A stretch of DNA of 40,000 bases from Cyanobacteria bacterium P01_G01_bin.39 (GTDB taxonomy: Bacteria > Cyanobacteriota > Cyanobacteriia > Cyanobacteriales > Xenococcaceae), in the NCBI GenBank assembly GCA_039180345.1, contig JBCDDK010000008.1, positions 4,643 through 44,642 on the forward strand, written 5' to 3'. The notes beneath the pieces were generated by a model. That model was not told the origin of the DNA. It worked only from the letters and a program-made list of their open reading frames with translations, and ran no database searches. Numbering within the stretch: the first letter of the stretch is position 1; every line of letters starts with the position of its first letter. Shown in pieces: positions 9,347 to 37,634 of the stretch. Both the position numbers and the translations under genes were made by a program.

Positions 9347-10567
9347 ATGAAAATTCTTATATCCGCTTATGCTTGCGAACCGAATAGAGGTTCAGAACCA
9401 GGCGTTGGCTGGCATACTGTGTGGGAATTAGCTAAAGATCATCAAGTCTGGGTTCTCACTCGTCCTGATGATGGAAGACCTGCAATTGAAAAGTATCTGA
9501 GGGATAATCCCAATCCCAATCTCAATTTTGTCTACTTTAACCTACCTATATTGGGAAGTTTTTGGCAGTGGGGTTCAATAGCTTTTGTCTTGCACTATTA
9601 TTTATGGCAGATTCAAGCCTATTTTGTTGCTCGCCTTTTACATCAAAAAATAGACTTTGATGTTGCCCATCATGTTACTTTTGTCCGTTATTCTACCCCT
9701 AGTTTCATTGCACTACTACCTATTCCCTTTGTCTGGGGTCCCGTAGGAGGAGGCGAAACAGCACCCCAACCGTTTTGGCAAGATTTCAGCACGAAAGCAA
9801 AAATTTACGAACTTCTTCGTCTTGCCGCTCATCGAGTGGGAGAATTAGACCCTTTTGTTCACCTAACAGCTAAACGAAGCCGAGTTGTAAAAGCAACTAC
9901 CAAAGATACCGCCGCCAGAATTGCTTTATTAGGAGCAAATAAGATTGAGATCGCTTCTGAGTCCAGCTTATCCCGAGCCGAAATTACGCTGCTCGAACAA
10001 TTGCCTTTACCAGAATCTCAGGCAATCCGCTTCATTAGTATGGGTCGTCTCATTCATTGGAAAGGATTTCACTTAGCTTTAAAAGCCTTTGCTCAAGCAA
10101 AATTAGACTATGCCGAATATTGGCTTTTGGGAGAAGGAGTAGAAAGCCAAAAATTACAGCAGCTAGCGGCTGAATTAGGTATTGCTCATCAAGTCAAGTT
10201 TTTTGGTAGACTACCTCGTCAGGAAACCTTAGCGACTCTGGGACAAACACATATCCTGGTTCATCCTAGCTTACACGATTCTGGAGGCTGGGTCTGTTTG
10301 GAAGCAATGGCAGCAGGTCGCCCCGTGATTTGTTTAGATCTCGGTGGTCCAGGAGTCCAAGTTACGGCAGAAACTGGAATCAAAGTTCCAGCTCACTATC
10401 CAGAGCAGGTGGTAGAAGATTTGTCTGAGGCAATGAGGCGTTTAGCTAGTGATTCCACTCTACGTCTTAAACTCGGTCACAAAGGTCAAAAAACCGTAAA
10501 GGAAATTTATAACTGGCATGCCAAAGTGCAAAAAACAGAACAATTGTATGGACAAATAGCCCAATGA
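9347..10567 (+). CDS. glycosyltransferase family 4
   Basis: The N-terminus MKILISAYACEPNRGSEPGVGW is typical of a GT4 subfamily. SMGRLIHWKGFHLAL and HDSGGWVCLEAMAAGRPVICLDLGG are also present. Confidence 0.85.
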   Translation: MKILISAYACEPNRGSEPGVGWHTVWELAKDHQVWVLTRPDDGRPAIEKYLRDNPNPNLNFVYFNLPILGSFWQWGSIAFVLHYYLWQIQAYFVARLLHQKIDFDVAHHVTFVRYSTPSFIALLPIPFVWGPVGGGETAPQPFWQDFSTKAKIYELLRLAAHRVGELDPFVHLTAKRSRVVKATTKDTAARIALLGANKIEIASESSLSRAEITLLEQLPLPESQAIRFISMGRLIHWKGFHLALKAFAQAKLDYAEYWLLGEGVESQKLQQLAAELGIAHQVKFFGRLPRQETLATLGQTHILVHPSLHDSGGWVCLEAMAAGRPVICLDLGGPGVQVTAETGIKVPAHYPEQVVEDLSEAMRRLASDSTLRLKLGHKGQKTVKEIYNWHAKVQKTEQLYGQIAQ

Positions 10568-22085: not shown

Positions 22086-25073
22086 TTAATTGCGCTCATT
22101 AACTTGAGCTTTGTCTAAGCAAATTTTTAATTTTTCTGCCAGAATTGGTGATTTCATAATAGAGGTATGGTTTCCAGGAACTTCATAGATTTCCATTCCT
22201 CCTGCTGCCAAATCTCCCCAACCAAGTTTGGGATCATTGTAAAAACCAGGAGGGCGATCGCTAGCCCGAAATAAAATAACTCGATCAGAGTAGACTGATG
22301 GCATGTAATTTCGCTTCGCCATGATATTAGCTTCTACAACTTGTTGTAGTGCTTCTGGTATCTCACCTGTGTCATTAATGATATCAGTAGTACTTTGGTC
22401 ACTGCCAGACAAGCCCCATAAAAATACATTAGTGTAAAAACCGCTAGCAAAATGTTTTAAAAGAAAGATTGCTAGAGAGTTAATCCGCTTTTCTAGAGAA
22501 CTAAGATTGTGAGAGACACTCTTGTATTGAGCAAATCTGATTTGAAAGATACTTTGCATCTTATGTTGGTTAATTTCTCGGTCTTCGTCAAAAACCTTTT
22601 GAACAATGCCCAAGCTCTCTAAAATCTTAGTCGAAGTCTGTTTGAGTCCCAATTGTCTCAAATTAGAGACAAGTTTTTGGGATAAAAGGCTCGGTTTACG
22701 CAGAGAATTAAATATTACGTACTTGAGGACAGATAATAATCTCGGTAGGGGTGGCAATATTTTATAGTAGTTTGGACCACTGCTATCAAACAAAGCCAGC
22801 AAAGCTACTTTCTGTCCTCGAGTCTGGAGGAGTTGGGCTATTTCCCAGGCTGTGGCGCCTCCAGTGGATAAACCAGCTAAAAAATAAGGACCATTAGGCT
22901 GGAGGCTACGTATTTGGGCAAGATAATAATCTGCCATATCCTTAACATCATTAAAAGGGGCGTATTTCCCATCTAAACCTCTTGGTTGTAAACCATAAAC
23001 TGGTTGGTCTACACCCAGAGCAAATGCTAAATCACGATAAACAAGAAGGTTACCACCTCCTGCATGGATATAAAATAGCGGAGGTTTACTGCCATTTGGT
23101 TGAATCGGCACTAAACTTTCCCAAGGAGATAGCCATTTTTCAGAGCGGATAATTTGGGCTATTTCCGCCACAGTCCCTGACTGAAAGAGTGTAGCTAGAG
23201 GTAGGTTTTTACCAAACTGCTTTTCTATTTGAGCAAATAGAGATACAGCCTGTAGGGAGTTTCCCCCCAAGTCAAAGAAATTATCTTTGACTCCAATAGG
23301 TTGAATACCTAGAACTTCTGACCAAATTTCGGTTAAGTGCGATTCCAATTGATCTTGGGGAACAACATAAGTACTAGATGGTTCTTGCCTAGTGTTATCT
23401 GGAGCAGGAAGAGCGAGGCGGTTGACTTTTCCATTGGGCAACAAGGGTAGGGTGTCTAGGATCACAAAAGCAGCAGGCATCATGTAATCGGGAAGTCTCT
23501 GCTTAAGGAAGTGCCGTAATTGGGCAACTGTAAGGTTCGATTCTGGGTTGGCAACTACATAGGCTACTAAGCGCTTTTGTCCTGGTTTGTCTTCGCGAAT
23601 CAAAACTACTGCCCCTTGGACAAGGTTATGCTGTCGCAGTTGATTTTCTATATCTCCTAATTCGACTCGAATGCCTCTGATTTTCACCAAATCGTCTTTA
23701 CGACCTCTAAGTTGAAAATTCCCATCATTCAACAGTCGCGCTACGTCTCCTGTCTTGTAAATCAAATCATGGGGATCGTCACTAAACGGGTTGGAAACAA
23801 ACACCTCTTTCGTCAATTCGGGCTGATTGTAATATCCAAGAGTCTTATAGGGAGTCCTAATATAAAGCTCACCAAAAACTCCGCGAGGACATAGATTTCC
23901 ATACCGATCCAAAATTACCGCCCTTGCCCCTTTAATTGGCTTACCAATGGGAATAAAGCCTCGCTCTAGATCAGATTCTTTTACTTGATGATAAAACTTC
24001 ACCATCGTAGTTTCGGTGGCACCATACAGATTGACCAGTTTGATCCGATTACTGTAGACTTTCCAAAAGTTTTCAACATCAGATACAGGCAAGGTTTCGC
24101 CAGACATCAAAATATAGTTGAGAGAATTCAACTTTTCCCCGTCTAGCTCTCTGTTAGTAAAAGTCGCAAACAAAGATGGTACACAATGAATCAAATTAAT
24201 CTGATTACTATCAATCCAATCAATTAATAGTTTTGTCTCCATTCTTGCTGTCAGTTCAGGAGAAATACAAATGGTTCCTCCTGAACAAAGAGGTACAAAA
24301 ATATCTCTTAAAAAGGCATCAAATGTAGGGCTAGTAAACTGGCTAAAACGCCATCCAGCAGTAATATTAAAAGTTTCTATTTCCCATTTTATAAAGTGAG
24401 AAACGCCTTTGAGATTTCCGACAATTCCCTTTGGTTTCCCTGTAGAACCAGATGTATAATAAATGTACGAACTCTGCTCTAGATCAACTGAGACTGATGG
24501 CTTTTCGGAACTAAATTTTGAGAGAGATTTACTAATGGGAATTAGATTTGCTTCAAACTGATTTGATTGCCAAGTCTCTTCAATATTGATAATCTTACTA
24601 TTCTGTTGATGATCACGGTATATTTGAGCTATTAGACTGCTGAATTTAGATTGAGTAATAAAGCAGTCTGGAGAAACATCATCAACAATTTGACACAACC
24701 GTTCTTCAGGAAAACTAGCATCGAGAGGGACAAAGACGCAACCAGCTTTCCATATTGCGATCAGCGAAATTATCATTTCGCTTCTATCATCGAGAATTAC
24801 CGCAATTTTTGACCCCTTAGCTATTTGGTTGCCAATTAAGCAATTTGCTAATCTATTAGTTCTATCATTAAGCTGGCTGTAGGATATTTGTTGATTATTC
24901 CACTCAATTGCTGTTTGTTCTTTGAAAGAATAGCAGGTTTGATTCAATATGTTTAATATTCCATCATCGTTGATGGCAGATATGTCAATTTGCCTTTCAG
25001 TTTTTATTGCTGAATCTAAGGAAAATTGGCTTTGAATCAGGGAAGTATTATGTTGCGAACGTTCATTACTCAT
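22086..25073 (-). CDS. NRPS termination module: A-PCP-TE, with no C or E domain
   Basis: A domain, about nt 23409-24941: A1 SYSQLN, A2 WKAGCVFVPLD, A3 YIYYTSGSTGKPKG, A4 FDAF, A5 NLYGATETT, A7 YKTGD, A8 GRKDDLVKIRGIRVELGDIE, A10 NGKVNR. PCP, about nt 23139-23351: FFDLGGNSLQAV. TE, about nt 22119-23096: GLSTGG (Ser736), LFDSS (Asp763), PGNHTS (His969). Confidence 0.95.
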   Translation of the reverse strand: MSNERSQHNTSLIQSQFSLDSAIKTERQIDISAINDDGILNILNQTCYSFKEQTAIEWNNQQISYSQLNDRTNRLANCLIGNQIAKGSKIAVILDDRSEMIISLIAIWKAGCVFVPLDASFPEERLCQIVDDVSPDCFITQSKFSSLIAQIYRDHQQNSKIINIEETWQSNQFEANLIPISKSLSKFSSEKPSVSVDLEQSSYIYYTSGSTGKPKGIVGNLKGVSHFIKWEIETFNITAGWRFSQFTSPTFDAFLRDIFVPLCSGGTICISPELTARMETKLLIDWIDSNQINLIHCVPSLFATFTNRELDGEKLNSLNYILMSGETLPVSDVENFWKVYSNRIKLVNLYGATETTMVKFYHQVKESDLERGFIPIGKPIKGARAVILDRYGNLCPRGVFGELYIRTPYKTLGYYNQPELTKEVFVSNPFSDDPHDLIYKTGDVARLLNDGNFQLRGRKDDLVKIRGIRVELGDIENQLRQHNLVQGAVVLIREDKPGQKRLVAYVVANPESNLTVAQLRHFLKQRLPDYMMPAAFVILDTLPLLPNGKVNRLALPAPDNTRQEPSSTYVVPQDQLESHLTEIWSEVLGIQPIGVKDNFFDLGGNSLQAVSLFAQIEKQFGKNLPLATLFQSGTVAEIAQIIRSEKWLSPWESLVPIQPNGSKPPLFYIHAGGGNLLVYRDLAFALGVDQPVYGLQPRGLDGKYAPFNDVKDMADYYLAQIRSLQPNGPYFLAGLSTGGATAWEIAQLLQTRGQKVALLALFDSSGPNYYKILPPLPRLLSVLKYVIFNSLRKPSLLSQKLVSNLRQLGLKQTSTKILESLGIVQKVFDEDREINQHKMQSIFQIRFAQYKSVSHNLSSLEKRINSLAIFLLKHFASGFYTNVFLWGLSGSDQSTTDIINDTGEIPEALQQVVEANIMAKRNYMPSVYSDRVILFRASDRPPGFYNDPKLGWGDLAAGGMEIYEVPGNHTSIMKSPILAEKLKICLDKAQVNERN

Positions 25074-25776
25074 TAACCAACCTCTGAAAATCTCTTGCTA
25101 TTGTTAATAAAGGATCTATAAAGTTGTAATTTAGATTATTTTGTTCTGATTTAATTAAATACTTGGTTATTAAGTGAAATTCAGTACAGCCAGCGATCAT
25201 TCCCTCAACTTGGTATTTCTGAGTCAAGGTATCTAGCAACTTTAAATAATCGAGAGTAGAATTGTCAAAGTTTTTAATTTTTATTTGATAAATTAACTGA
25301 TGAATTAAATTCTGATCCTCTTCATCTGGTAGTTCTATATATTGACTGGCCAAACTCCATAACTGGTGATTTTGGAAGATTCCCCCTTGGCATGTTCCCT
25401 TGGTGCATAACAACAGATATCGTTTTTGATTAGTTAACACTTCTTTAAAGATTACATCTATTAAAGATATAACTTTTTTTCTTAAATGAATTGGTATTTT
25501 GGGCATAAAATAGTGTATCGTTATGCAAGAAATTGCTATTTTGCTAACGCCTAGCTGGACAAGATGAGATAAAGCTTTTATTAGATGCTCGAGCAAGATC
25601 TCATCATTACCGCTAGTGACTGCTTTTGTTCGGTCGGGAAATGTTGGATCGGAAAACAGAATACATGCTGGTAAATCTTGCTCAAGATCAGAAAAGTTAA
25701 ATTCGTAAATTGTTTGCAGGAACTCAGTGGATGCTAAAGGTCCCATTCCACCTAAAATACCTAATAATTTCGTCAT
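25066..25776 (-). CDS. aspartate/glutamate racemase family protein (McyF-like role inferred)
   Basis: LGILGGMGPLAST at the N-terminus. Two candidate catalytic cysteines lie in AISCITIH and IAGCTEF. Size is 236 aa. Its stop overlaps the NRPS start by 8 nt (ATGAGTAA). Confidence 0.8.
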   Translation of the reverse strand: MTKLLGILGGMGPLASTEFLQTIYEFNFSDLEQDLPACILFSDPTFPDRTKAVTSGNDEILLEHLIKALSHLVQLGVSKIAISCITIHYFMPKIPIHLRKKVISLIDVIFKEVLTNQKRYLLLCTKGTCQGGIFQNHQLWSLASQYIELPDEEDQNLIHQLIYQIKIKNFDNSTLDYLKLLDTLTQKYQVEGMIAGCTEFHLITKYLIKSEQNNLNYNFIDPLLTIARDFQRLVNE

Positions 25777-25821: not shown

Positions 25822-27444
25822 TTAGCAAACTTCATTTTTGGCAAAAGCTATTCCATCTAAGGGGTCATTAAAATTACCTATCAATTCTTCTTTATCACTG
25901 CTCGTTAAAAGAGACAAACGCGAGATACATTTTGCTGGATTAGCAACAATATCTGTGATCAAGGTCTGAAAATTTTTGAGCATTCGGGTAATAGTATCAG
26001 ATTCAAAAAGATCGATATTGTAGGTCATACTACCTTGGAGATATTTCCCATTATCTAAAAAGGTTAATATTAAATCGAAATCACCTCCTCGCCGTTCCAA
26101 TGCCATATAGTCAAGAACTATTTCTTTGCGGGCGTTTTCTAATGACTTGTTTTCACTTACGCGAGATTGATCCCAAACCAACATTGCCTGGAACAATGGC
26201 GGTCTGCTGGGGTCGCGTTCTAGTTGCAATTTTTCCACTAGTAAGGGAAATGGGAACTCTTGATGATCTAATGCTTCAAGTAAAGCTTGACGAACTTGAT
26301 GGAGTAATTCTTCAAATGTAGGATCACCTGCTAGATTCACCCTTAGAACAACTGGATTAACAAAATAACCGATGATGTTTTCTAATTTTGGATCTGTTCT
26401 TCCTGACATTGGACACCCAATCAACAGTTCCTCTTGAGAAGTATAACGTAGTAATAGAACTTGAAATGCCGCTAAAACAATGGCATAGGTTGTCGTCCCG
26501 GTTTTTTTCGCCAGCTCTCTGATTTCCCTAGAAACTTCCTGGCTTAAAATACAATGTTGCTTGTCACTGTTGTAAGTTTGCCTAGCTGGTCGAGGTTTAT
26601 CCGTTGGCAAATTTAGTACTGGCAATTCTCCAGATAATTTGTGTCGCCAGTAATCCCAATGCTGATTGATTTCTGTACCAGCAGCCAGCTTTTTTTGCTC
26701 TCGATGCACATAATCTCGATACTGAAAATTTAGTGTGGGTAGAGATATTGCACTGCTTTCTTTCATGCTTTTACAAAGCAGACAAAGCTCATCCATCAGA
26801 ATATCTATAGACCATAAATCCATTGCAATGTGATGACCCACTAGCAATAAAATTTTCTCTCTCTCTACTGAAAAGTCTGTCTCGGAATATCGATTTAATA
26901 GGTGTGCTCTGATAATTTCTCCTTCACCGAGGTTGAAAGGACGGTCTGCATTTTCTGCCAACCAATTATCTAAATAATCTTGAGAAGTATCATCAGTCTC
27001 TGTGACTATAAATTGGGCTTGCCAATCTTGGCAGGTTTGCTGAACGAATTGTCCGTTTTCAGTTTTATAAGCAGTGCGAAGGCTGGGATGGCGCTCAACC
27101 ATTTTATTAAATGCTTGTTCTAAGATTGAAACATCCAAGTCGGGATTAAGTCGCACTGCATACATCATGTTATAAACACTGCTTTCGGGTTCAAGTTGAT
27201 AAAAAAACCATAAAGCTTGTTGTCCTAATGACAAGGGATAAGGTTTGCTTGAGTTGGCATCTTGGCGTAATACATCCAAGATTTCTGATTTGTATTGCTT
27301 AATTTGGCTAAAGACTTGAGGAGTCAAAGTCTCTTTTGGACCCCGATAACGCAGCTTGTCTTCTTCCGCCCACAATTCTATTCCTTGGGTTCGAAGATCT
27401 TGAATAAAATCAACTATATTTGGGTCATTAAATGTATTAACCAT
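25822..27444 (-). CDS. stand-alone NRPS condensation domain with an N-terminal TubC-type docking domain
   Basis: aa 8-58, IVDFIQDLRTQGIELWAEEDKLRYRGPKETLTPQVFSQIKQYKSEILDVL, matches the TubC_N/beta-hairpin docking pattern. C1 is PLSLGQQALWF. C3 is HHIAMDLWS (aa 204-212, nt 26809-26835). There is no A or PCP domain in this protein. Confidence 0.9.
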   Translation of the reverse strand: MVNTFNDPNIVDFIQDLRTQGIELWAEEDKLRYRGPKETLTPQVFSQIKQYKSEILDVLRQDANSSKPYPLSLGQQALWFFYQLEPESSVYNMMYAVRLNPDLDVSILEQAFNKMVERHPSLRTAYKTENGQFVQQTCQDWQAQFIVTETDDTSQDYLDNWLAENADRPFNLGEGEIIRAHLLNRYSETDFSVEREKILLLVGHHIAMDLWSIDILMDELCLLCKSMKESSAISLPTLNFQYRDYVHREQKKLAAGTEINQHWDYWRHKLSGELPVLNLPTDKPRPARQTYNSDKQHCILSQEVSREIRELAKKTGTTTYAIVLAAFQVLLLRYTSQEELLIGCPMSGRTDPKLENIIGYFVNPVVLRVNLAGDPTFEELLHQVRQALLEALDHQEFPFPLLVEKLQLERDPSRPPLFQAMLVWDQSRVSENKSLENARKEIVLDYMALERRGGDFDLILTFLDNGKYLQGSMTYNIDLFESDTITRMLKNFQTLITDIVANPAKCISRLSLLTSSDKEELIGNFNDPLDGIAFAKNEVC

Positions 27445-27546: not shown

Positions 27547-30500
27547 CTATAATTCTCCTTCCAACCAATTCTGATCATCTTGCAAAGATAAATTTGACTC
27601 AACTGTTGGTGAAACAGAATTCTCGGTCAGTTGTTCGCCACAAAGCTTTGCCAAACTAGCAACTGTAATCTCATTCATAAATTGACTCATTAGTAAATTG
27701 ACTCCTAAATCGGTTTTGAATAAGTTCCTCAACTGAACAGCCATTAAGGAGTCTAATCCCATGGTAGTCAAGGGCTGCTGGATATCCAGCTGTTTAGCAT
27801 TAATTCCCAGAGCTTGAGAAACCCTCTCCTGAACATAGATAACCAGGAGTGATTCACGCTCGCTTGAGTTAGCCTGTTTGATATCCTTAACTGATACTTG
27901 TTTATCTTGTATGGGTTGCTCCTGACCAATTAATTCTTCAAAAAATGGCGGAATATTACCTGATGAAAACTTCTGGCTAAACTTTGACCAGTCAATTGGG
28001 ACTACTCCTACTTGGGCAGAAACATTGAACAAGAGCCGCTCTAATGCTTGTAGTGCCAACTCGGGAACTATCGGTTCCATACCCTGAATTTTGATCTGAT
28101 TATCAGCTGCCATCCCGATGCTTGCCCACCCCCCCCAGTTGATAGTTAATCCAGGAAGTCCTTGAGTTTGACGGTAATGCGTCAAGGTATCGAGAAAAGT
28201 ATTGGCAGCGACATAATTGGTTTGACCTAGAGAACCTAGTAAAGATGCTGTCGAAGAGAACATTACAAAAAATTCTAATGATTTTTCTTTGGTCAAGCTA
28301 TGTAAATTCCAAGCTCCCTGCACTTTTGGAGCCATGACCCGAGCAAATCTTGACCAGTCAAGTTGTTGCAAAACCCCGTCATCTAAAATTCCCGCAGCGT
28401 GAATAATACCTCCCAAGGGTGAAACAGAGCTATCTACGTCCCTTATTACTTTAGCAATTTGTTCTTCTTGAGTAACATCTGCTTGAGCTACTACTACCTG
28501 CACCCCCGCATTTTCTAGCTCGGTTATTTTTTCCTTGGTGTTTTTACTAGGTTCACTACGCCCTAGTAAAACTAAATGCTTTGCTCCTCGCTGCGCCATC
28601 CAACCAGCGATGAATAAACCTAAACCTTTTAAACCACCAGTAATTAAATAGCTTTTTGATTCATGGAATAGATTTTTAGACTTAACCTTAGTTTTTTCTA
28701 GGTCTTTCCTAACTATTCTTGGCACATAACGAGTATTGTTACGAAAAGCGACTCGATCCTCTGAATCGTTTGACCAAATTTCTGCCAACAATACTGGGGC
28801 AAGATCATTCTTCAATTCTGGGTCTAGGTCTACCGTGACGCAATTTAGTTCAGGGTGTTCTAAAGAAATTACCTTTCCCATCCCCCATAAGGGAGCTTGG
28901 GATAAACCAGGAAGATTGCCTTCTCTGACTACTGCTTGGGCGCCTTTGGTCACTAAGCAGAGAGAACAAGAGTCGGATAATCCACTATTAACTAAATATT
29001 GAACGAGATTTAAAGTACTGCGACAACTTAATACGGAAGCATCTTTTAAATCTTCTACTGTCATGACTTGGGCATCTACAGTATCTAAACTCCACAGATG
29101 AACTATGCCGATAGAAGAAGTGTTGTCTAGATCCAAAGCTTTCCCTAGTTGCTCTAAATCCTCAGCAGAATTTGGCTCAATTGCAAACTCTGAATCGGAT
29201 ATCTGCTGGTATTGCTGACCTGAAAAAACCAACCGAGAATCTTTTCCCTCAGCTTTAAGCAAAGTCGCTAAATTGCATCCAATTCCTTTATTATCAGCTA
29301 AAATCAGCCAAGAATCGGGTTGGACTTGACTCCCTTGAGCTGACATGGGTTTGGCTGACCACTGAACTTCGTAAAACCAATCTTCAATACTGCTGGCTTT
29401 CTGGACTTCTAGTTCAGTTTTGCCTAAAGTTTCTAAGAGCTTAGGGAGTAACTGCAACTCTTGTGGGTCAAATTCTCCTGTTTTTGCTAATTTATCAACT
29501 AAGCTGCTTACCCCTCCTGGGGATAGTTGTAATAAATTATCTTTTGCCTCGACCCAGTAACGCTTTCTCTCAAAAGGATAGGTGGGTAGGGAAAGACGAT
29601 TTCGCTTTTCCTGTTGATAAAATGCCGACCAGTCTACTTCTACTCCTGCTTGCCATAACTGTCCTAAAGTATTGAGTATAAATGCTTGATCGGAAGTGTC
29701 TTCTTTGGGATGACGCAGGGAAGATAAAACAACTTGCTCATCTGCTTGCTTGAGTGCCAAGGACTTAAGCATCTTTCCTGGACCCACTTCTAAGAGAATA
29801 CAATCTTTTTGAGACAGTAGTTCTTTTGCTCCCGCAGCAAAACGAACCTCCGAGCGCAGATGTTTTGCCCAATAACTGGGATTGGTTGCTGACTCAGGAG
29901 TAACCCAAGTACCACTCACGTTGGAAATGTAGGGGATTTGAGGTGGATTTAGAGCAACTTGACTAACTCGTTCGGTAAAGGTTGCCAAAATCGGTTCCAT
30001 CATCGAGGAATGGAAGGCATGGGAAGTATGCAAGGGACGACAATCGATTTCTTTGTTAGTTAACTGTTGCTCAAATGTATCTATTGCTTCATGAGTTCCT
30101 GATACTACGCAACTACCTGGGGCGTTGAGTACTGCTAGATCTAGATTGTCATTGAGTAAGGTTTTAACTTCAGCTTCGGGTAAGAATACTGACAACATCG
30201 ACCCGCTAGGAAGTTTTTGCATCAACTGACCACGTTCAGCAACTAGCATCAAGGCATCTTCTAAGGAAAATACTCCAGCGATGCAGGCAGCTACATATTC
30301 ACCAATACTATGACCAATGGCTGCTTTTGGCTTAATGCCCCATGCCATCCAGAGACGAGCCGTGGCATATTCAATGATAAATAAAGCGGGTTGAGTAAAG
30401 CGAGTTTCGGTTAACTGTTGGGTTGCTGACTCGATCTTGTCCGTTTCTGGATAGAGTATGTCCCGCAAATCTAAGCCTAATCTGGGTTTTAGTAGTTCAC

Positions 30501-32187
30501 AACAGTAATCGACCTGTTCTCGGAAGATGGGTTCTTCCTGATATAATTCTTGGCCCATGTTGACATACTGCGCTCCCTGTCCAGAAAACATAAAGGCAAC
30601 TGTCCGTTTTTTAGATTCTGTCGGTTTGAGAAAGTCTGTATTTTGGAGAGCAGTAACAGCTTCAGCCCCATTTTGACAAACTACCACTTGCCGATATTTA
30701 AAGCCTCGACGACCTACTTGTAGAGTGTACGCTACGTCTCCTAAGTTTAAATCGACATGTTGTTCTAGGTGCTGTGCTAGATTTTGGGCAGCAGTTACTA
30801 AAGCAGATTCGCTTTTTGCCGAAAGCAGTAGTAATTGCCAAGGTCTAGAGGGGCTTGATGGTTCTCTAACGGGGGCTTCTTCTAAAATCACATGAGCATT
30901 AGTTCCCCCAATACCAAAGGAACTAACACCAGCCCTACGGGGTACGCCGTTAGTATGCCAAGGTTGCAGCTCAGTATTGACATAAAAGGGGCTGCTCGTA
31001 AAATTTATCTGGGGATTGGGTTGCTGGTAATTAATGCTGGGGGGAATTTCTTGATGTTTCAGAGCCAACACCGTCTTAATTAAGCTGATCGCACCAGAAG
31101 CACGGTTGAGATGACCCATGTTACCCTTGACCGAACCGATCGCACAATATCTTGTCTTGTCAGTACTGCTGCGGAAAACCTTAGTCAAAGCAGCAATTTC
31201 AATGGGATCTCCCATCGTCGTCCCTGTACCGTGGTTTTCGATATAGCTAATGGTCTCAGGGTCGATTTCGGCGATTTCTTGAGCTTCAGCGATCGCATCT
31301 GCCTGACCGTCTACACTGGGGGCGGTGTAGCCTACTTTTAAGGAACCATCATTGTTAATCGCCGAACCCTTAATTACTGCTAGAATTGGATCGCGATCGG
31401 CGATCGCATCTTCTAAGCGTTTCAGCACTACAATACCAACACCACTACCAAAAATTGTGCCTTTGGCATCTGCATCAAAGGGACGACAATGACCATCTGG
31501 AGATGCCACACTATCTTCTTGATGGAAATATCCTGCTGTTTGAGGCAGGGAAATCGTAGCGCCCCCCGCTAATGCCATGTCACATTCGCGATCAAGTAAT
31601 CCTTGACAAGCTATATGCACCGAAACTAAGGAAGTGGAACAGGCAGTGTTAATACATACGGAAGGGCCAGTTAAATTTAGCTTATAAGAAATCCGAGTCG
31701 GCACAAAGTCCTTATCATTGCCAATTTCAATTTGCAAATCCCCAGTTGATTTGATGAAATTGGGGTTGGTTAGGAGGTTTTGATGCAAATAAGTACTCAG
31801 ACTCGATCCTACATAGACTCCAATTCTGCCATCGTAGTTTTCTGAGTCCTGTCCCGCACTCTCTAATGCGCCCCAGGCACATTCTAATAACAAGCGATGT
31901 TGGGGATCTGTTGCTTGGGCTTCCCGAGGAGAGATGCCAAAAAAATCAGCATCAAATAAATCGACATCTGATAGTATCGCCCCTGCCTTAACATAATTGG
32001 GGTCTGCTACAGTTTCACTAGGTACGCCAGCCGCAATTAATTCTTCATCGCTAAAGAAGGTGATCGATTCTACGCCGTTGCGCAGATTGTGCCAAAATTC
32101 TGCAACATTATTAGCACCAGGGAAACGACCATCCATGCCGATAATCGCAATCCCTTCTTCATTTTGTGAATCTAGATAATCACTCAT
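27547..32187 (-). CDS. type I PKS module: KS-AT-KR-ACP
   Basis: KS, nt ~30880-32154: DGRFPGA, TACSTS (Cys183), HGTGT, GNMGH. AT, nt ~29653-30600: GHSIGE (Ser627) and HAFH, the malonyl-type motif. KR, nt ~28123-29370: TGGLKGLG, LDD at 1268-1270 (B-type), Tyr1325. ACP, nt ~27643-27855: GLDSL (Ser1480). There is no DH motif between AT and KR. The acidic C-terminal tail is DDQNWLEGEL. Confidence 0.95.
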   Translation of the reverse strand: MSDYLDSQNEEGIAIIGMDGRFPGANNVAEFWHNLRNGVESITFFSDEELIAAGVPSETVADPNYVKAGAILSDVDLFDADFFGISPREAQATDPQHRLLLECAWGALESAGQDSENYDGRIGVYVGSSLSTYLHQNLLTNPNFIKSTGDLQIEIGNDKDFVPTRISYKLNLTGPSVCINTACSTSLVSVHIACQGLLDRECDMALAGGATISLPQTAGYFHQEDSVASPDGHCRPFDADAKGTIFGSGVGIVVLKRLEDAIADRDPILAVIKGSAINNDGSLKVGYTAPSVDGQADAIAEAQEIAEIDPETISYIENHGTGTTMGDPIEIAALTKVFRSSTDKTRYCAIGSVKGNMGHLNRASGAISLIKTVLALKHQEIPPSINYQQPNPQINFTSSPFYVNTELQPWHTNGVPRRAGVSSFGIGGTNAHVILEEAPVREPSSPSRPWQLLLLSAKSESALVTAAQNLAQHLEQHVDLNLGDVAYTLQVGRRGFKYRQVVVCQNGAEAVTALQNTDFLKPTESKKRTVAFMFSGQGAQYVNMGQELYQEEPIFREQVDYCCELLKPRLGLDLRDILYPETDKIESATQQLTETRFTQPALFIIEYATARLWMAWGIKPKAAIGHSIGEYVAACIAGVFSLEDALMLVAERGQLMQKLPSGSMLSVFLPEAEVKTLLNDNLDLAVLNAPGSCVVSGTHEAIDTFEQQLTNKEIDCRPLHTSHAFHSSMMEPILATFTERVSQVALNPPQIPYISNVSGTWVTPESATNPSYWAKHLRSEVRFAAGAKELLSQKDCILLEVGPGKMLKSLALKQADEQVVLSSLRHPKEDTSDQAFILNTLGQLWQAGVEVDWSAFYQQEKRNRLSLPTYPFERKRYWVEAKDNLLQLSPGGVSSLVDKLAKTGEFDPQELQLLPKLLETLGKTELEVQKASSIEDWFYEVQWSAKPMSAQGSQVQPDSWLILADNKGIGCNLATLLKAEGKDSRLVFSGQQYQQISDSEFAIEPNSAEDLEQLGKALDLDNTSSIGIVHLWSLDTVDAQVMTVEDLKDASVLSCRSTLNLVQYLVNSGLSDSCSLCLVTKGAQAVVREGNLPGLSQAPLWGMGKVISLEHPELNCVTVDLDPELKNDLAPVLLAEIWSNDSEDRVAFRNNTRYVPRIVRKDLEKTKVKSKNLFHESKSYLITGGLKGLGLFIAGWMAQRGAKHLVLLGRSEPSKNTKEKITELENAGVQVVVAQADVTQEEQIAKVIRDVDSSVSPLGGIIHAAGILDDGVLQQLDWSRFARVMAPKVQGAWNLHSLTKEKSLEFFVMFSSTASLLGSLGQTNYVAANTFLDTLTHYRQTQGLPGLTINWGGWASIGMAADNQIKIQGMEPIVPELALQALERLLFNVSAQVGVVPIDWSKFSQKFSSGNIPPFFEELIGQEQPIQDKQVSVKDIKQANSSERESLLVIYVQERVSQALGINAKQLDIQQPLTTMGLDSLMAVQLRNLFKTDLGVNLLMSQFMNEITVASLAKLCGEQLTENSVSPTVESNLSLQDDQNWLEGEL

Positions 32188-35100
32188 TAGACTTTCCCTC
32201 CTCTGCGTTGTCGACGTTGTTTTCTAGCATCTTTTTTGCTGCGCACTCGGTCTGTAACATCTTGAAAACCTGGAGCTGATGATGATTTTTGCTCTCCCTG
32301 TGACTGAGTTAAATATTTTGCCAGAGCATCAATAGTAGGATATTGATATAAATCCACTAGGGAAATCTGAGGATAATTCTCTTGTAATTTGCTCAATATT
32401 TGAACCATTAATAAGGATGTACCCCCCAACTCGAAGAAGTTATCCTGGATACCTATTTGCTCTATGGTCAATACTTCCTTCCAGATTGTCACCAGTGATT
32501 CTTCTACCTGGTTCCCCGCAGCAACAAACTGAGATGCTAATTCCAGAGGACGAACTCGACGTTTATTAGACTCAATCAATTGTAGAATCTGCTTTGGCTC
32601 ATATAGCTCTGTAGCAATGCGAGTCATGGTTTGAATCTGTTTTTGACCTCGACTTACTGTTGCCGTTGGCTTTTGAACTCCTGGGGTAGAATCAACTGAC
32701 TTTGCAGTTTCTGGATTATAAGTAAGCTCGGCAGCTATTGCGCTAGGTAGTTTAAAGAGCCAAGATGATTCTATTTTTTCTTTAACGACACCAGCTAGAT
32801 TTTCTAGAAAATTTAGTGCGGGTTGATTTTTGGGTGTGGAAGCATATGCCAGATCTATGTACTCAAGCCCCCGATCTTGGGCTATGGTACCAAGGCTAGC
32901 TAACATCTGATGTTCGATGCCTTTACCTAAAGCGCGGCAGCTAAGGAGAAAAGTATCAACTTTTAGTACCTTGTCTGATACCCCGAATAACATTGCCCCT
33001 ACTAGACCATAATCACCAAAGCGATCGCTAACTTTAACAGTAAGACATTCTATTCCTGAATCGAGCAATTGTTGAATTTCAGTTTCACTCCGTCTAATGG
33101 TAGTAAAATTGAACTGGTTTGTCCGCTGGGTCAATTGTGCCACTCTAGCTAATTGCTGCACTGACATCGGGGCAATATTAACCTGTAGGTTTAAACCAGC
33201 CAAGAAATCGCTAAAGGTTATTGTCTCCTGACGGAAGCTTTCTCGTTTGACATTCTGCTGATAAAGAGCGGTTCTTTGTTTATCTTCTGCTGTATTTTGT
33301 AGGTGATCGAATGCCCAGATATGCTCTAGAAAGTTGGGAATTTTATCTATCTGTTCAGGAAGTTGTAAAGTTAGAACTTGAGGACAGTTGGCTTGCACTT
33401 CGGCACATTCGAGGGGATTATCATCAATAAAGATAAAGCTGTCTAACCCTAAGTTTAGTTCCTGTGCCAGAGATTTAATATTCTCTGATTTTGCTTGCCA
33501 GTTAATACGCCACTGAACTAGATGTCGTCGTTGTAGAGGCATTTGATGGTAGTCAAATACTTGCCAAACATCTGCCTCATTATTCTTACTACACAAACAT
33601 AAGAGCATTCCTGCCTCAGATTGTGCCACCATGAATTCCTGTAGCTTTTTATAAGCTGGATCTATGGTTACTCCCTCTGCGCCATCTTCCCCACAGATTC
33701 CGTTCCATAAAGTGCGATCGCAATCTAAGACAATCACTTTGTAAGGAAGGGTTTTAAGAACGTTTATTTTACGAGCGATCACTGTTCCCAAAGCGGTATA
33801 GTATTCTGGGGTATAGGGAACACTACCTGATTTATCTCCACGAGGATCGTAGTAATCTAGGACAGGATATTTGGTAGTTAATTCTGAAACTGGTAATAAA
33901 TGTATGCCGTTAACCTGATCTAGATAGGAACCTAAGAGATTTTCCATCTCTCCATAAAAACTGCTACGTTCTGGATCTGAATTTACCTCCGAGGAAGCAG
34001 GACACAGACAAACTAGATAGGGGGTTGCAGTAGATTCGGCAGAGGCGATTAATGCTTGCCCTAAATCTTTGATATTTTCTTTTAGGCTAGCTTTATTTTC
34101 CTTAGAGATTGACGACAATACTTGAGCTGAAGTGCCAGGACGGGTTGCATAAATGTTATAAAGACCCGAACCTTGAAGCAAAGTTTCTTCTTCTACAATC
34201 AGTTCAAACCCCTTGTCTTGCAACAGTTGTTTGACTTGTTTAATAATGCTTCCCTCTTGATCGTGAACTTCCACAACCATTTGTTGAATTATCGACCAGT
34301 GATGGTCTTTAATCCCCTGTAGGACTGGCAATTCACTTTTTTCCGCATCTAGCTTGAGTAAATCGATACGTTCAATGTTGTGTTCTTCTATTACGCTCGA
34401 AAGAGTCCGCAATTGAGCTTGGAAGCTTTCTACTTCTAACCTACCTGGCATAAACTCATCAGCAAGTCTTTCTAATTCTGCTCCTTCGCCAGCATTGACC
34501 TGCTGTAACATATTCAGGATTACGGCGCGGATAGCTTGCTCGTCGTCTTCTTTGTCGGCATGAAACCCAGAGAACACCGAAGAGTTAGGATAGAAAGTAA
34601 AGGTTTCTGATTTATCTGACCCTGATAGTCCGCAGTTAAATAAGTTAGCATTCTGACAATACAAGGCTGCATTGCTCTTTAACTTCTCAAAAGCATGGGG
34701 GGCAGGTTCAAAGGAGTAGATAGTTGCGTTAGGACACTGTTGCTGAATAAATAAGGTAAACAAGCCAATATTTGCCCCAATATCCACCACACAAGCATCG
34801 TCATTCAAGACTATATTATGTCTGGCGTAAACCCGATCAACGAATAATTCCTGATAAAGATATTCGGTTTCATATTGATTGAGGTGGGCTACCTCCAGAC
34901 CTTGAGGTAAATTATGAGTCGACAAGTTACCTAAAATTGCTTGCTTTTGTTCAGTGTCAACTATGGGTTTGAGTTGCTTCTTATCCTGTGACCAATCTTC
35001 TAGTCTGAGTAAAATTACATTAACCCCATCTCGATTCTGAGACATCGTACTACTAGGGTTGAGTAACTCTTGAAATATTTGATTATAAGGGGCAAATTCA

Positions 35101-36074
35101 ATTTCGCTCTTAAGATTTAGCTCCTCCATCCAGAAGCTTAAAGAATCCTCAATCGGTTCAGCCGTAAAAGATGCTGCGATCACAATTTTTTGTGTTATTT
35201 GCAGCGAATTTAGCAGTGCCTCTTGACTGGCACGCTCAATTGCTACTCCCTTCAACTCTACTAGGCAATTACCTGCCTCATCCAATAGGTATAAGTCAGC
35301 CAGTAAAATTTTACCTGCCAAATCTGACTCAGGGGAAATTTTGGCATAACTCCAGCAACTAGAGCTAATATCTGGATAGCGATGAACTATCAGCTTCTCT
35401 ATTCCCACTGGTAAATAGGTATCTTCCTTAGTAGCTTCGGGTAAAGCAGCCCACAAAACTTGAAGACAGCTATCTAACAATACTGGATGTAATAAATAGT
35501 TATCTGGTTCAACCAGCTTGCTCAAATCTAACCGAACCTCAGCTAAGGCAGATTTTTCTTGTTGATATAACTTTTCTAATACTTGAAAGCGATCGCCATA
35601 TTGTATATTTCGCTCTCGACAGGTTTGATAAAAATCTGCTATCGATCTGGTTTTAGATTTGGTTAACTCAGCTACTGGATTTACTTGAAAAAACTTTTGC
35701 TGAGATTTGTTAATTATAACTTTTCCTGATGCATATAATGCCTTAGCTGAAGTCTTTCCTTTGTCTTTTCTTAAGCTATAGATATCCCAATCAAATAAAT
35801 TATCTCCCCTTTCCTGAAACTCAATCTGAATAATTTTTACCCCATCTTCTGGCAAAACCAAAGCTTGATGGACAACAAAATCCTCTATACTCAAGTTTTC
35901 CATTTGGAGTAGGGTTTTTCCCTCAGCCAAAACCATTTCTAGATAAGCAGTTGCTGGTATTAAAGCTTGGTTACATACGCGGTGATCAGATAAAAAACCT
36001 GGCGTATCTACTTTAACTTTTATCTGAGATTTAAAAGACATTTCAGCAGAAGAAGACTCTAGTTGTTCAATCAT
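32187..36074 (-). CDS. PKS loading protein: DH - FkbM-family methyltransferase - FkbH-like (HAD-IIIC + acyltransfer) - ACP
   Basis: DH, nt ~35220-36032: H31 in HRVCNQALIP, YGDRF, DSCLQ. MT, nt ~34140-34892: VVDIGANIGLFTL, YSFEPAP, DLLKLDAEKSE. HAD core, nt ~33360-33743: VIVLDCDRTLWNG, FIFIDDNP. Acyltransfer part, nt ~32745-33197: DRFGDYGLVG, LLSCRALGKGIE. ACP, nt ~32310-32522: ELGGTSLL (Ser1220). Its stop shares one base with the next start (TAATG at 32187). Confidence 0.9.
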   Translation of the reverse strand: MIEQLESSSAEMSFKSQIKVKVDTPGFLSDHRVCNQALIPATAYLEMVLAEGKTLLQMENLSIEDFVVHQALVLPEDGVKIIQIEFQERGDNLFDWDIYSLRKDKGKTSAKALYASGKVIINKSQQKFFQVNPVAELTKSKTRSIADFYQTCRERNIQYGDRFQVLEKLYQQEKSALAEVRLDLSKLVEPDNYLLHPVLLDSCLQVLWAALPEATKEDTYLPVGIEKLIVHRYPDISSSCWSYAKISPESDLAGKILLADLYLLDEAGNCLVELKGVAIERASQEALLNSLQITQKIVIAASFTAEPIEDSLSFWMEELNLKSEIEFAPYNQIFQELLNPSSTMSQNRDGVNVILLRLEDWSQDKKQLKPIVDTEQKQAILGNLSTHNLPQGLEVAHLNQYETEYLYQELFVDRVYARHNIVLNDDACVVDIGANIGLFTLFIQQQCPNATIYSFEPAPHAFEKLKSNAALYCQNANLFNCGLSGSDKSETFTFYPNSSVFSGFHADKEDDEQAIRAVILNMLQQVNAGEGAELERLADEFMPGRLEVESFQAQLRTLSSVIEEHNIERIDLLKLDAEKSELPVLQGIKDHHWSIIQQMVVEVHDQEGSIIKQVKQLLQDKGFELIVEEETLLQGSGLYNIYATRPGTSAQVLSSISKENKASLKENIKDLGQALIASAESTATPYLVCLCPASSEVNSDPERSSFYGEMENLLGSYLDQVNGIHLLPVSELTTKYPVLDYYDPRGDKSGSVPYTPEYYTALGTVIARKINVLKTLPYKVIVLDCDRTLWNGICGEDGAEGVTIDPAYKKLQEFMVAQSEAGMLLCLCSKNNEADVWQVFDYHQMPLQRRHLVQWRINWQAKSENIKSLAQELNLGLDSFIFIDDNPLECAEVQANCPQVLTLQLPEQIDKIPNFLEHIWAFDHLQNTAEDKQRTALYQQNVKRESFRQETITFSDFLAGLNLQVNIAPMSVQQLARVAQLTQRTNQFNFTTIRRSETEIQQLLDSGIECLTVKVSDRFGDYGLVGAMLFGVSDKVLKVDTFLLSCRALGKGIEHQMLASLGTIAQDRGLEYIDLAYASTPKNQPALNFLENLAGVVKEKIESSWLFKLPSAIAAELTYNPETAKSVDSTPGVQKPTATVSRGQKQIQTMTRIATELYEPKQILQLIESNKRRVRPLELASQFVAAGNQVEESLVTIWKEVLTIEQIGIQDNFFELGGTSLLMVQILSKLQENYPQISLVDLYQYPTIDALAKYLTQSQGEQKSSSAPGFQDVTDRVRSKKDARKQRRQRRGGKV

Positions 36075-37634
36075 AAATGTTAAGAACTCAAGATTTTTAT
36101 TTCATTCTCTACACCTTATGAAATAAACATACAATAAATAAACTACATGCGTAAAGTATTTTTGTAAATTAATTCCTTCACTCAAAACAGTATTGTCAAT
36201 CTGGCGTTAAGTTTAAGATACGTTTAAAAGTGTGTTGTATTCAACTGTAAGTCTGGCTAGATCTATCCTATGAGCATCTATAATAATCGTAAAACCACGA
36301 AATGTTGATTAATTTACCATTTAGGTGTATTGGTGCAAAAATTAGTTCCTTTAATTGAACGATCTTTCTCATTCCAGACTTCTCTATCTAGTTTGCCTGC
36401 ATGAGGAATGTTGGACGAAACAATAAAATTACCTAAAAATCCCAAGTTTCCGAGTAGTTCCACTTTATTAAATATGAAATAGTTGAGGTGGGGGTTGAGG
36501 ATTCACAAAGGAACTTTTTGGTTTCCCATATATTGAGGAAATACATTTTTCAAGTAGCTATATTTGTTTTGCGTTTTTTTAAGTGGGATACTGATTAATT
36601 TACAGCTGTTATCTATATATATCTATATGTAAATAGCAAATCTATGAATGTTACTAATAGAAATATTTAGAACACTTAAGTCAACCCATTAGTACTGTTT
36701 TGTCAAACTTTTGTTGCGGTATAAATATTGCTTTGAAGATTCTGGAATTATCAGCTAGTGAAAAGCAAAATAAAATTTCCGATGAAGAGGAAGAATATTC
36801 ATTGAAAAATAACATAAATCCTTAGTGTTAAGTAAAACTTGGTCAGAAAAATTTTAAGAATAACGAAGAATAACCTTGACTCTAGATAGCAAAATTATTT
36901 CAAGTATTAAACCTCCTTCAGGAAGCAATATTAAATGTTTCAAAAACAATGCGAATTTGAGTTTGATTATTCCTCCTAACAAATATGTAAATAGATCACA
37001 ATGTCTAATCTATCTATTAATGATGTCTGGGACAACTACATCATACTTCTTTTATAGAGATATAAAACGTTTTGAGGATCTTGGCTTTTTCTTATTTGTT
37101 TATGCTCTTCTATGAGCTGGATATTTTGGCTATTAAATTGTTTATCCTTCAATTCTAAAAATTAAGATTGTTATTCGGCGAGATAAATTTGTAATTTATC
37201 ATGACTATAAATTTTTTCATAGAAAAGAAAATAGTTATACTCAAAATATCAGTAGAGTGACTATAGACCAAAAAATAAGTCACAAAAACAAACAAGTCAC
37301 AGAAGAATATTGTTCTATTGAATCAGGTGTAAAAAGATATAAGTTTGGCGAGCATTTATCCTTACCAGAGAAAAGATGGCTAGTTCAAGAGATCCACAAT
37401 TTCGTCAGAGAAATAGATCCATACAAAACACTGAAGTAACTTTTGTGCAGCATTTACAATAATCATAATTCGAGAAACAATATGAAATCAAAAAACCATA
37501 TTTTAAAGTTTCCATAATTTAGAAGCCTATAAATATTGAAACTAAGAGGGTAATTGACTTTAGGTTTCTAAAGCTTGACTTTTGACTTCGATATGAGGGA
37601 GTGTTGCAATAGGATTCTCTAGTAAACCATAGTC

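Follow-up and report, generated by a model that had tools for sequence, protein, structure and literature searches.

Introduction

Among the closest described systems to the one analysed here are the microcystin and nodularin synthetases, in which a stand-alone two-cysteine racemase (McyF or NdaG) is encoded by a gene adjoining that of a non-ribosomal peptide synthetase (NRPS). They do so without an epimerisation (E) domain, and the pocket of the adenylation (A) domain features Asp235, Arg239, His278 and Lys517 (GrsA numbering). The same features occur in a 40,000-nucleotide stretch of DNA from Cyanobacteria bacterium P01_G01_bin.39 (GenBank assembly GCA_039180345.1, contig JBCDDK010000008.1, positions 4,643 to 44,642), which we refer to as the window. 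Here a racemase gene of the same family (25066-25776, minus strand) overlaps the gene of a terminal NRPS protein (22086-25073, minus strand) consisting of an A domain, a peptidyl carrier (PCP) domain and a thioesterase (TE) domain. On balance, and with some reserve, we favour a reading of these sequences in which the racemase makes D-Asp, the Arg/His-type A domain adenylates it at the β-carboxyl, a condensation (C) protein joins it to a polyketide, and the TE domain frees an N-acyl-D-aspartate. This would give a concrete, if predicted, substrate (D-Asp, activated at its side chain) for an orphan cyanobacterial polyketide synthase (PKS)-NRPS.

The microcystin and nodularin synthetases use one A domain for an iso-linked D-MeAsp or D-Asp (McyB-A2, NdaA-A2) and another for D-iso-Glu (McyE, NdaF). 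In PMC8142540, McyF is entered among aspartate racemases whose kinetics were measured, in its case on L-Asp. In the zeamine pathway of Serratia plymuthica, the A domain Zmn16-A1 has the published code DPRHLALLAK and was called 2-aminoadipate-specific by NRPSpredictor (PMC3547906). The structure of prezeamine determined by nuclear magnetic resonance contains an Asp linked through its side-chain carboxyl, in the authors' term a γ-aspartate (PMC5811116). For the speirobactin cluster of Photorhabdus, it has been proposed that a racemase provides the free D-Asp used by an A domain, no E domain being present (PMC12406682). Orphan cyanobacterial NRPS/PKS clusters with racemase genes have been remarked on previously, and the effect of these genes on the product called unpredictable (PMC4558948); in the literature searched, this remark was the sole comment we found on such genes.

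The locus in the window would operate in the manner of the aspartate part of microcystin and nodularin synthesis. Unlike the microcystin and nodularin clusters, it lacks an Adda PKS and an aminotransferase, and no heptapeptide or pentapeptide line that would form a macrocycle is present; its residue comes last, on the A-PCP-TE protein, and its racemase gene is placed between those for C and A, not after the synthetase gene. A microcystin or nodularin cluster could be ruled out, as the cluster in the window contains neither a KS-AT-ACP-CM-AMT-C-A-C hybrid, nor Adda PKS genes, nor a multi-module NRPS. An earlier reading of the sequence alone (the sequence-only reading) had proposed that microcystin/nodularin logic is reused here in a small, unrelated pathway, and our analysis supports this proposal. 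The window code, DARHLSLMVK, is identical to that of Zmn16-A1 at six of ten positions and conservatively substituted at the others, and fabclavine has a module matching that of zeamine; in pocket and clade, the zeamine/fabclavine starter domain appears to be the nearest relative. However, Zmn16-A1 starts its peptide, with an Asp predicted to be L, whereas the window domain stands at the end of the line and is paired with a racemase. The speirobactin cluster likewise encodes an Asp/Glu-family racemase among its NRPS genes, but its codes (DYWQIGFIDK and DIWYVGACSK) lack the Arg/His pocket and several genes separate its racemase gene from that of the NRPS. The distal carboxyl of a dicarboxylic amino acid is activated by the aminoadipate domain of ACV synthetase and by VinN-type A domains for β-amino acids, where a basic residue holds the α-carboxylate. 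The codes and clades of these domains differ from those of the window type.

Results and discussion

The racemase and the A-PCP-TE protein

The 236-residue protein encoded at 25066-25776 is most likely an aspartate racemase of the McyF type, that is, a predicted two-cysteine enzyme independent of pyridoxal phosphate. It scores 65.3 bits against the Pfam family PF01177 (Asp_Glu_race; cut-off, 31) and 120.1 bits against the NCBIfam model TIGR00035 (asp_race; cut-off, 93.1). Its closest relative of known structure in a PDB search is McyF (5wxx; E = 1.4e-45, 41% sequence identity), followed at some distance by Pyrococcus AspR (E = 1e-20). Cys84 (codon at 25525-25527) and Cys197 (codon at 25186-25188) fall on the two positions at which McyF carries Cys-to-Ser mutations in entries 5xnk and 5wxy. 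Both residues, and a PDR motif, are invariant across 25 aligned homologues. The two cysteines thus match the catalytic pair of McyF, in line with the sequence-only reading, which had noted both candidate catalytic cysteines in a protein of the Asp/Glu racemase family.

The 995-residue NRPS protein is divided by Pfam into AMP-binding (residues 45-415), AMP-binding_C (475-549), PP-binding (580-641) and Thioesterase (665-767) domains. Neither a C nor an E domain was found in it by the Pfam scan, in agreement with the earlier claim that an E domain is missing. The A domain, delimited by Pfam, TIGR01733 and alignment to GrsA (residues 45-555; 23409-24941, minus strand, as for all features of this protein), passes TIGR01733 with 361 bits (cut-off, 317.4) and has the core motifs YTSGSTGKPKG (A3), NLYGATE (A5), YKTGD (A7), GRKDDLVKIRG (A8) and NGKVNR (A10). 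The PCP domain (residues 580-641; 23151-23336) has its phosphopantetheine serine in the motif LGGNS, and the TE domain (residues 665-995; 22089-23081) has a serine in GLSTG and a histidine in GNH. The sequence-only reading had given the same two open reading frames, for proteins of 995 and 236 residues, and an overlap of 8 nucleotides between them; the overlap is ATGAGTAA at 25066-25073, in which the stop codon of the racemase gene and the start codon of the NRPS gene share bases. Translation of the two genes is likely to be coupled as a result of this overlap.

We determined the specificity code by MAFFT alignment to GrsA, whose sequence was checked against PDB entry 1AMU beforehand. The ten residues (23427-24320, minus strand) are Asp252, Ala253, Arg256, His296, Leu322, Ser324, Leu349, Met357, Val358 and Lys549, giving DARHLSLMVK, and the same code was recovered from an alignment of 335 sequences. 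Residues and numbering agree with the earlier hand alignment, and neither alignment produced a differing code. Arg256 and His296 take the places of Trp239 and Thr278 in GrsA; together with Asp252 and Lys549, they reproduce the combination (Asp235, Arg/Lys239, His278 and Lys517) of the acidic type of A domain that activates a side-chain carboxyl (McyE/NdaF, McyB-A2 and Zmn16-A1). β-Aminoacyl-ACP synthetases are only weak PDB matches to the A domain (E about 1e-45), and a PDB search with the pocket segment alone returned unrelated top matches and not PvdL-A2, a γ-Glu domain. In the NCBIfam model based on PvdL, the best stretch coincides with the second A domain of PvdL, a hint to which we give no weight. 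Neither DARHVGIFVK, the code given for McyB-A2 in the sequence-only reading, nor DPRHSGVVGK was found in the literature searched, whether written solid or spaced; the McyB fragment of known structure (8HLK) is module 1.

Pairing of racemases with Arg/His-type A domains

Scanning reference genomes with an alignment of racemase sequences gave 80 loci holding McyF-like racemases, from cyanobacteria, Acidobacteriota, Bacteroidota, Myxococcota, Gammaproteobacteria and other groups. All A domains in the flanks (up to 10 kb per side) were assigned codes from a multiple alignment that included GrsA, as codes from single-query phmmer searches had misplaced position 278 or 331 in 57 domains (reading, for example, DPRISGVVGK for DPRHSGVVGK and DARTFSLMVK for DARHFSLMVK). 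At least one complete A domain is present in 63 of the 80 loci. When domains within 2.2 kb of the racemase are counted as adjacent, 54 of the 80 loci have an adjacent A domain, which in 47 of these 54 is of the D-x-R/K-H type (Asp235, Arg/Lys239, His278). Counted by domain, the combination of Arg/Lys239 and His278 occurs in 47 of 61 adjacent A domains, compared with two of 90 distant ones at the same loci (odds ratio, approximately 148; Fisher p = 6e-24). The coupling of a McyF-like racemase with the Arg/His pocket is strongly non-random across phyla. In the commonest layout, a C domain is followed by the racemase gene and then by a protein starting with an A domain; the racemase gene sits at the point where the module predicted to use its product is divided into a C half and an A half. 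The sequence-only reading had suggested a racemase-supplied D-acidic residue for an Arg239/His278 pocket, a suggestion that gains support both from this pairing and from the relationship to McyF.

The arrangement in the window recurs as a cassette. Related A-PCP-TE proteins (870-1020 residues, 47-62% identical) have the codes DARHLSLMVK, DARHLALMVK, DARHLALLVK or DARHLALMTK. At three loci, the trio of C domain, racemase and A(DARHL[AS]L[ML]VK)-PCP-TE follows upstream chemistry that is unrelated between them: a chorismatase-like protein, an acyl ligase and a carrier protein at the first (L004), a multi-module NRPS-PKS at the second (L005), and an A-MT-PCP-C protein at the third (L006). The 8-nucleotide overlap between the racemase and A-PCP-TE genes is also present in the called genes of L004 and of a locus in Iningainema tapete (L001). 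The racemase of the latter is truncated to 117 residues (9655-10008 of that locus) and lies between the C and A-PCP-TE genes; a further contig of this genome (L079) has an NdaG-type racemase gene that is intact and follows a gene of the NdaF type. Judging from these sequences, racemase and Arg/His-type A domain appear to form a widespread, portable unit. The trio with the C domain would then be a portable means of installing D-Asp without an epimerase domain, of use for predicting structures from genomes and for NRPS engineering.

Two further arrangements recur among cyanobacterial NRPSs. The first was found at eleven loci (L015-L018, L021-L023, L026, L029, L051 and L052) in Nostoc, Anabaena, Calothrix, Rivularia, Roholtiella, Mastigocoleus, Trichodesmium and Crocosphaera. 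Most of these loci have an Asp-type A domain, followed by a C domain, the racemase and an A(DARHLSLMTK)-C-A(DASTIAAVCK)-TE protein. The code of the first A domain is DLTKVGHVGK or DLTKIGHVGK (DLYDFSLVWK in L018), and the A domain after the racemase reads DAKHVALLTK in L022. We considered whether this NRPS might be the cyanochelin cluster, but dropped the idea, as no racemase is mentioned in the papers on cyanochelin. In a second arrangement, C-A(DARHFSLMVK) is separated from the racemase gene by a gap of approximately 400-500 bp (L019, L020, L024, L034, L053, L054 and L058; hosts in Plectonema, Tolypothrix, Brasilonema, Scytonema, Calothrix and Phormidesmis). At L053, L054 and L058, which extend further, the racemase is followed by C domains.

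Substrate and activated carboxyl

In a single neighbour-joining tree of 335 A-domain cores, calculated without bootstrap, 161 domains with Arg/Lys239 and His278 fall inside one clade of 168. They come from cyanobacteria, Acidobacteriota, Bacteroidota, Myxococcota and Gammaproteobacteria. The window domain belongs to a group of 24 A-PCP-TE-type domains nested in a sub-clade of 141, which also holds many N-terminal A domains of proteins of approximately 1700 residues. Within the same sub-clade is the N-terminal A domain of a protein (P0028) that has the Zmn16-A1 code, DPRHLALLAK, and 51% core identity to the window domain. Our best call for the substrate is D-Asp, adenylated at the side-chain carboxyl. 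Asp is favoured over Glu because McyF is an aspartate racemase and because the A domain groups with the domain bearing the Zmn16-A1 code. If the call is right, it may extend to the large clade of A domains (161 in this small sample), the pocket of which would be read as one for side-chain-activated Asp.

The sequence-only reading had named D-Asp, with D-Glu as the other option, and of the two only D-Asp has gained ground. A domain taking D-Glu, tethered through the γ-carboxyl as in McyE and NdaF, would share Asp235, Arg239, His278 and Lys517 with DPRHSGVVGK. This code, given for McyE in the sequence-only reading, is present in the A domain of all four McyE/NdaF-type open reading frames of our multiple alignment. 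The loci in question (Aliinostoc, Iningainema and two from Nostoc) have the racemase gene directly after the gene with the Glu domain, a 3300-residue KS-AT-ACP-CM-AMT-C-A-C open reading frame, which would also suit D-Glu. Nevertheless, we consider D-Glu an improbable substrate. The codes match at only four of ten positions, and the residues at positions 299-331 are bulkier in the window domain (Leu, Ser, Leu, Met and Val compared with Ser, Gly, Val, Val and Gly), which would suggest a shorter substrate. Over the whole domain, identity to the McyE/NdaF-type A domains is about 33%, and ordinary Asp or Glu domains are closer than this. McyF has been characterised as an aspartate racemase, and the window racemase passes the asp_race model. 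In the tree, calculated without bootstrap, the window domain groups with the domain of the Zmn16-A1 code, and the McyE/NdaF types join the clade only at its base, on a long branch. The likeness to McyE thus seems to be confined to the pocket and not to reflect close ancestry.

Which carboxyl of D-Asp is activated has no direct sign in the sequence, and a C-terminal residue released by hydrolysis looks identical in either case. Arg256 and His296 might therefore bind the side-chain carboxylate of a D-Asp that is activated ordinarily through its α-carboxyl. We give this only a small chance, given that the conventional α-Asp domains at the same loci have very different codes (DLTKVGHVGK and similar), and that the products of the Zmn16-A1-code domain and of McyE/NdaF (D-iso-Glu) both use the side-chain carboxyl (PMC5811116; for the latter, PMC2174460). 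Smaller still is the likelihood that side-chain-activated Asp is the wrong acid altogether and that the domain takes α-aminoadipate, 3-methyl-aspartate or cysteate. NRPSpredictor did label the sibling code DPRHLALLAK as 2-aminoadipate (PMC3547906; see also PMC12283262), but the zeamine product has Asp at this position (PMC5811116). The racemase also matches the model of the cysteate racemase CuyB (NF052483; E = 2e-33), yet its score of 116 bits is far below the equivalog cut-off of 190, and we rejected this assignment. Among the Pfam-scanned open reading frames of the window there is no glutamate mutase, nor any enzyme forming methyl-aspartate or cysteate.

The predicted D configuration comes from the tightly coupled racemase and not from the pocket. 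The sequence-only reading had taken the Arg/His pair to mark A domains for a free D-acidic amino acid tethered through its side chain. An acidic substrate and the use of the side chain survive our analysis, but the pair as a mark of D configuration does not, because two members of the clade (L002 and L089) have no racemase within 10 kb, so the pocket type alone does not imply a D substrate. The Arg239/His278 pocket would signal use of the side-chain carboxyl, and a neighbouring racemase would signal the configuration.

These two racemase-less loci are among several observations that weigh against our assignment of D-Asp. The racemase most similar to that of the window among those with usable genomic context (72% identity; L087/L088, 8013-13870) comes after a conventional A domain of the Asp type (DLTKIGHVGK) and before a protein of the composition C-A(DVQFVAQVVK), with no adjacent Arg/His domain; an Arg/His-type domain (DPRHFGFQAK) lies approximately 8 kb upstream. 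Among the racemases of cyanobacterial reference genomes, those closest to the window's (L008, L009 and L070; 54-57% identity) lie in polysaccharide clusters and have no NRPS within 10 kb, which implies that the family serves other consumers too. In the window itself, the 3' end of the A-PCP-TE gene is 46 bp from the end of a glycosyltransferase-rich cluster of 18 genes (158-22039, plus strand), towards which it converges. The C domains preceding racemases form no separate group, and that of the window is nearest to C domains with ordinary acceptors; we accordingly dropped the idea that C domains have co-evolved with the acceptor residue. The tree, as mentioned, lacks bootstrap support. The link to Zmn16-A1 is through the identical ten-residue code and N-terminal position of P0028, not through the sequence of Zmn16; P0028 has no racemase nearby and is surrounded by glycosyltransferases, and neither an organism nor a product connected with zeamine emerged from the cluster-member names of P0028 and its relatives.

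Some of these observations would be explained if the A domain took L-Asp, or did not discriminate between the enantiomers, and the racemase served another consumer, such as the polysaccharide cluster, or were only loosely connected with the NRPS. The prediction of L-Asp in zeamine (PMC5811116) and the occurrence of close racemase homologues in exopolysaccharide clusters without an NRPS are in keeping with this explanation, as is the report of speirobactin as L-Asp and D-Asp epimers from a cluster encoding an aspartate racemase (PMC12406682). We judge it to be rather unlikely. The racemase gene is part of the NRPS operon and overlaps the start codon of the A-PCP-TE gene, and the placement of a racemase between C and A in dozens of loci from several phyla would be difficult to account for if the two had no functional connection. 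We therefore retain D-Asp, activated at the side chain, as the preferred reading.

The assembly line and the proposed pathway

Five minus-strand genes run head to tail from 36074 to 22086, encoding a loading protein, a PKS, a C protein, the racemase and the A-PCP-TE protein. They most likely constitute a single small PKS-NRPS assembly line, with its terminal module split over three genes (C, 25822-27444; racemase, 25066-25776; A-PCP-TE, 22086-25073). The loading protein (32187-36074, 1295 residues) consists of a DH domain, an FkbM-type methyltransferase, an FkbH domain and an ACP, as judged by the Pfam families PS-DH, Methyltransf_21 and PP-binding. Its FkbH domain scores 300 bits against TIGR01686 and has the DCDRT motif and the cysteine. 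The DH domain has the motif HxxxNxxxxP in place of HxxxGxxxxP, with DxxxQ present. The PKS (27547-32187, 1546 residues) is a type I module of the order KS-AT-KR-ACP according to Pfam, NCBIfam and motif reading, with its KS cysteine in TACSTS, AT motifs GHSIG and HAFH (malonyl type) and a KR motif LDD (B type). The stand-alone C protein (25822-27444, 540 residues) has an N-terminal TubC-type docking domain and the active-site motif HHIAMD. Catalytic motifs are complete in the C, A, PCP, TE, KS, AT, KR and FkbH domains, as read from the sequence.

FkbH loaders of glycerate are found in the bryostatin (BryA) and phormidolide pathways, where FkbH-ACP, DH and O-methyltransferase domains reshape a glyceryl starter. 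By analogy with these, the starter of the window's loading protein would be derived from glycerate; the comparison is supported in part by PMC7600079. Unlike in the BryA and phormidolide loaders, the window's DH, FkbM, FkbH and ACP domains are on one protein, which feeds a single cis-AT module. The domain order of this protein is uncommon. Its open reading frame ends at coordinate 32187, which is the first base of the PKS open reading frame.

We propose the following pathway. The FkbH domain would load a glyceryl unit, which the attached DH and methyltransferase domains could reshape, by dehydration and O-methylation, into a methoxy-acrylyl starter, by analogy with other FkbH loaders. The PKS would extend this starter by one malonate, as suggested by the HAFH motif of its AT domain, and the B-type KR would leave a 3-hydroxyl group, giving a 3-hydroxy acyl chain, predicted to be 3-hydroxy-4-methoxy-pentenoyl. 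In parallel, the racemase would convert cellular L-aspartate to D-aspartate. The Arg256/His296 pocket of the A domain would hold the free α-carboxylate of this residue, so that the side-chain (β) carboxyl is adenylated and the residue loaded onto the PCP domain. The C protein, docked to the PKS via its TubC-type domain, would then acylate the amino group of the PCP-tethered Asp with the polyketide chain, and release by the TE domain would yield the predicted N-acyl-D-aspartate. The sequences themselves show the domain content, the pocket code, the family of the racemase, the overlap of the genes and the statistical coupling of racemase and A domain. We infer the polyketide structure and the hydrolytic mode of release, as we do the identity of the residue as Asp and not Glu, its D configuration and the carboxyl that is activated. 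Hydrolytic release would render the β-tether cryptic, as the N-acyl-Asp is identical whichever carboxyl was thioesterified. The iso-linkage would matter only if the chain were released to another nucleophile.

The polysaccharide neighbourhood

Such a nucleophile might be sought in the cluster at 158-22039, which encodes seven GT4-type glycosyltransferases (Glycos_transf_1), one GT2 and one GT8 enzyme, a polysaccharide pyruvyl transferase, a sulfotransferase, two methyltransferases, a pectate-lyase-like protein and a VanZ-like protein. Conceivably, though we think it a long shot, the β-tethered N-acyl-D-Asp is passed via its C4 carboxyl to an amine or hydroxyl group of a sugar made by this cluster; a glycan or glycolipid would then carry an N-acyl-D-aspart-4-yl group. 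A sugar of this kind, 4-(N-acetyl-D-aspart-4-yl)amino-4,6-dideoxyglucose, is known from the Providencia stuartii O33 antigen (cited in PMC10609480); no enzymology for the N-acetyl-D-aspart-4-yl linkage was found in the literature searched. NRPSs with the same pocket were found in or beside polysaccharide clusters three times, namely in the window, L005 and L089.

At L008 (10001-11855), the racemase is part of a Wzx/Wzy-type cluster that also encodes a sugar transferase, a Wzc-like protein, a flippase, Wzy and glycosyltransferases. Its gene overlaps that of a conserved 353-residue protein without a Pfam match, which we found only in L008, L009 and L070 and which may be an alternative consumer of the D-amino acid.

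On its other side, the assembly line is bordered by a divergent cysteinyl-tRNA synthetase gene (37635-39071, plus strand), located approximately 1.5 kb upstream of the loading gene. The promoter of the cluster presumably lies in the 1.5-kb spacer between them (36075-37634).

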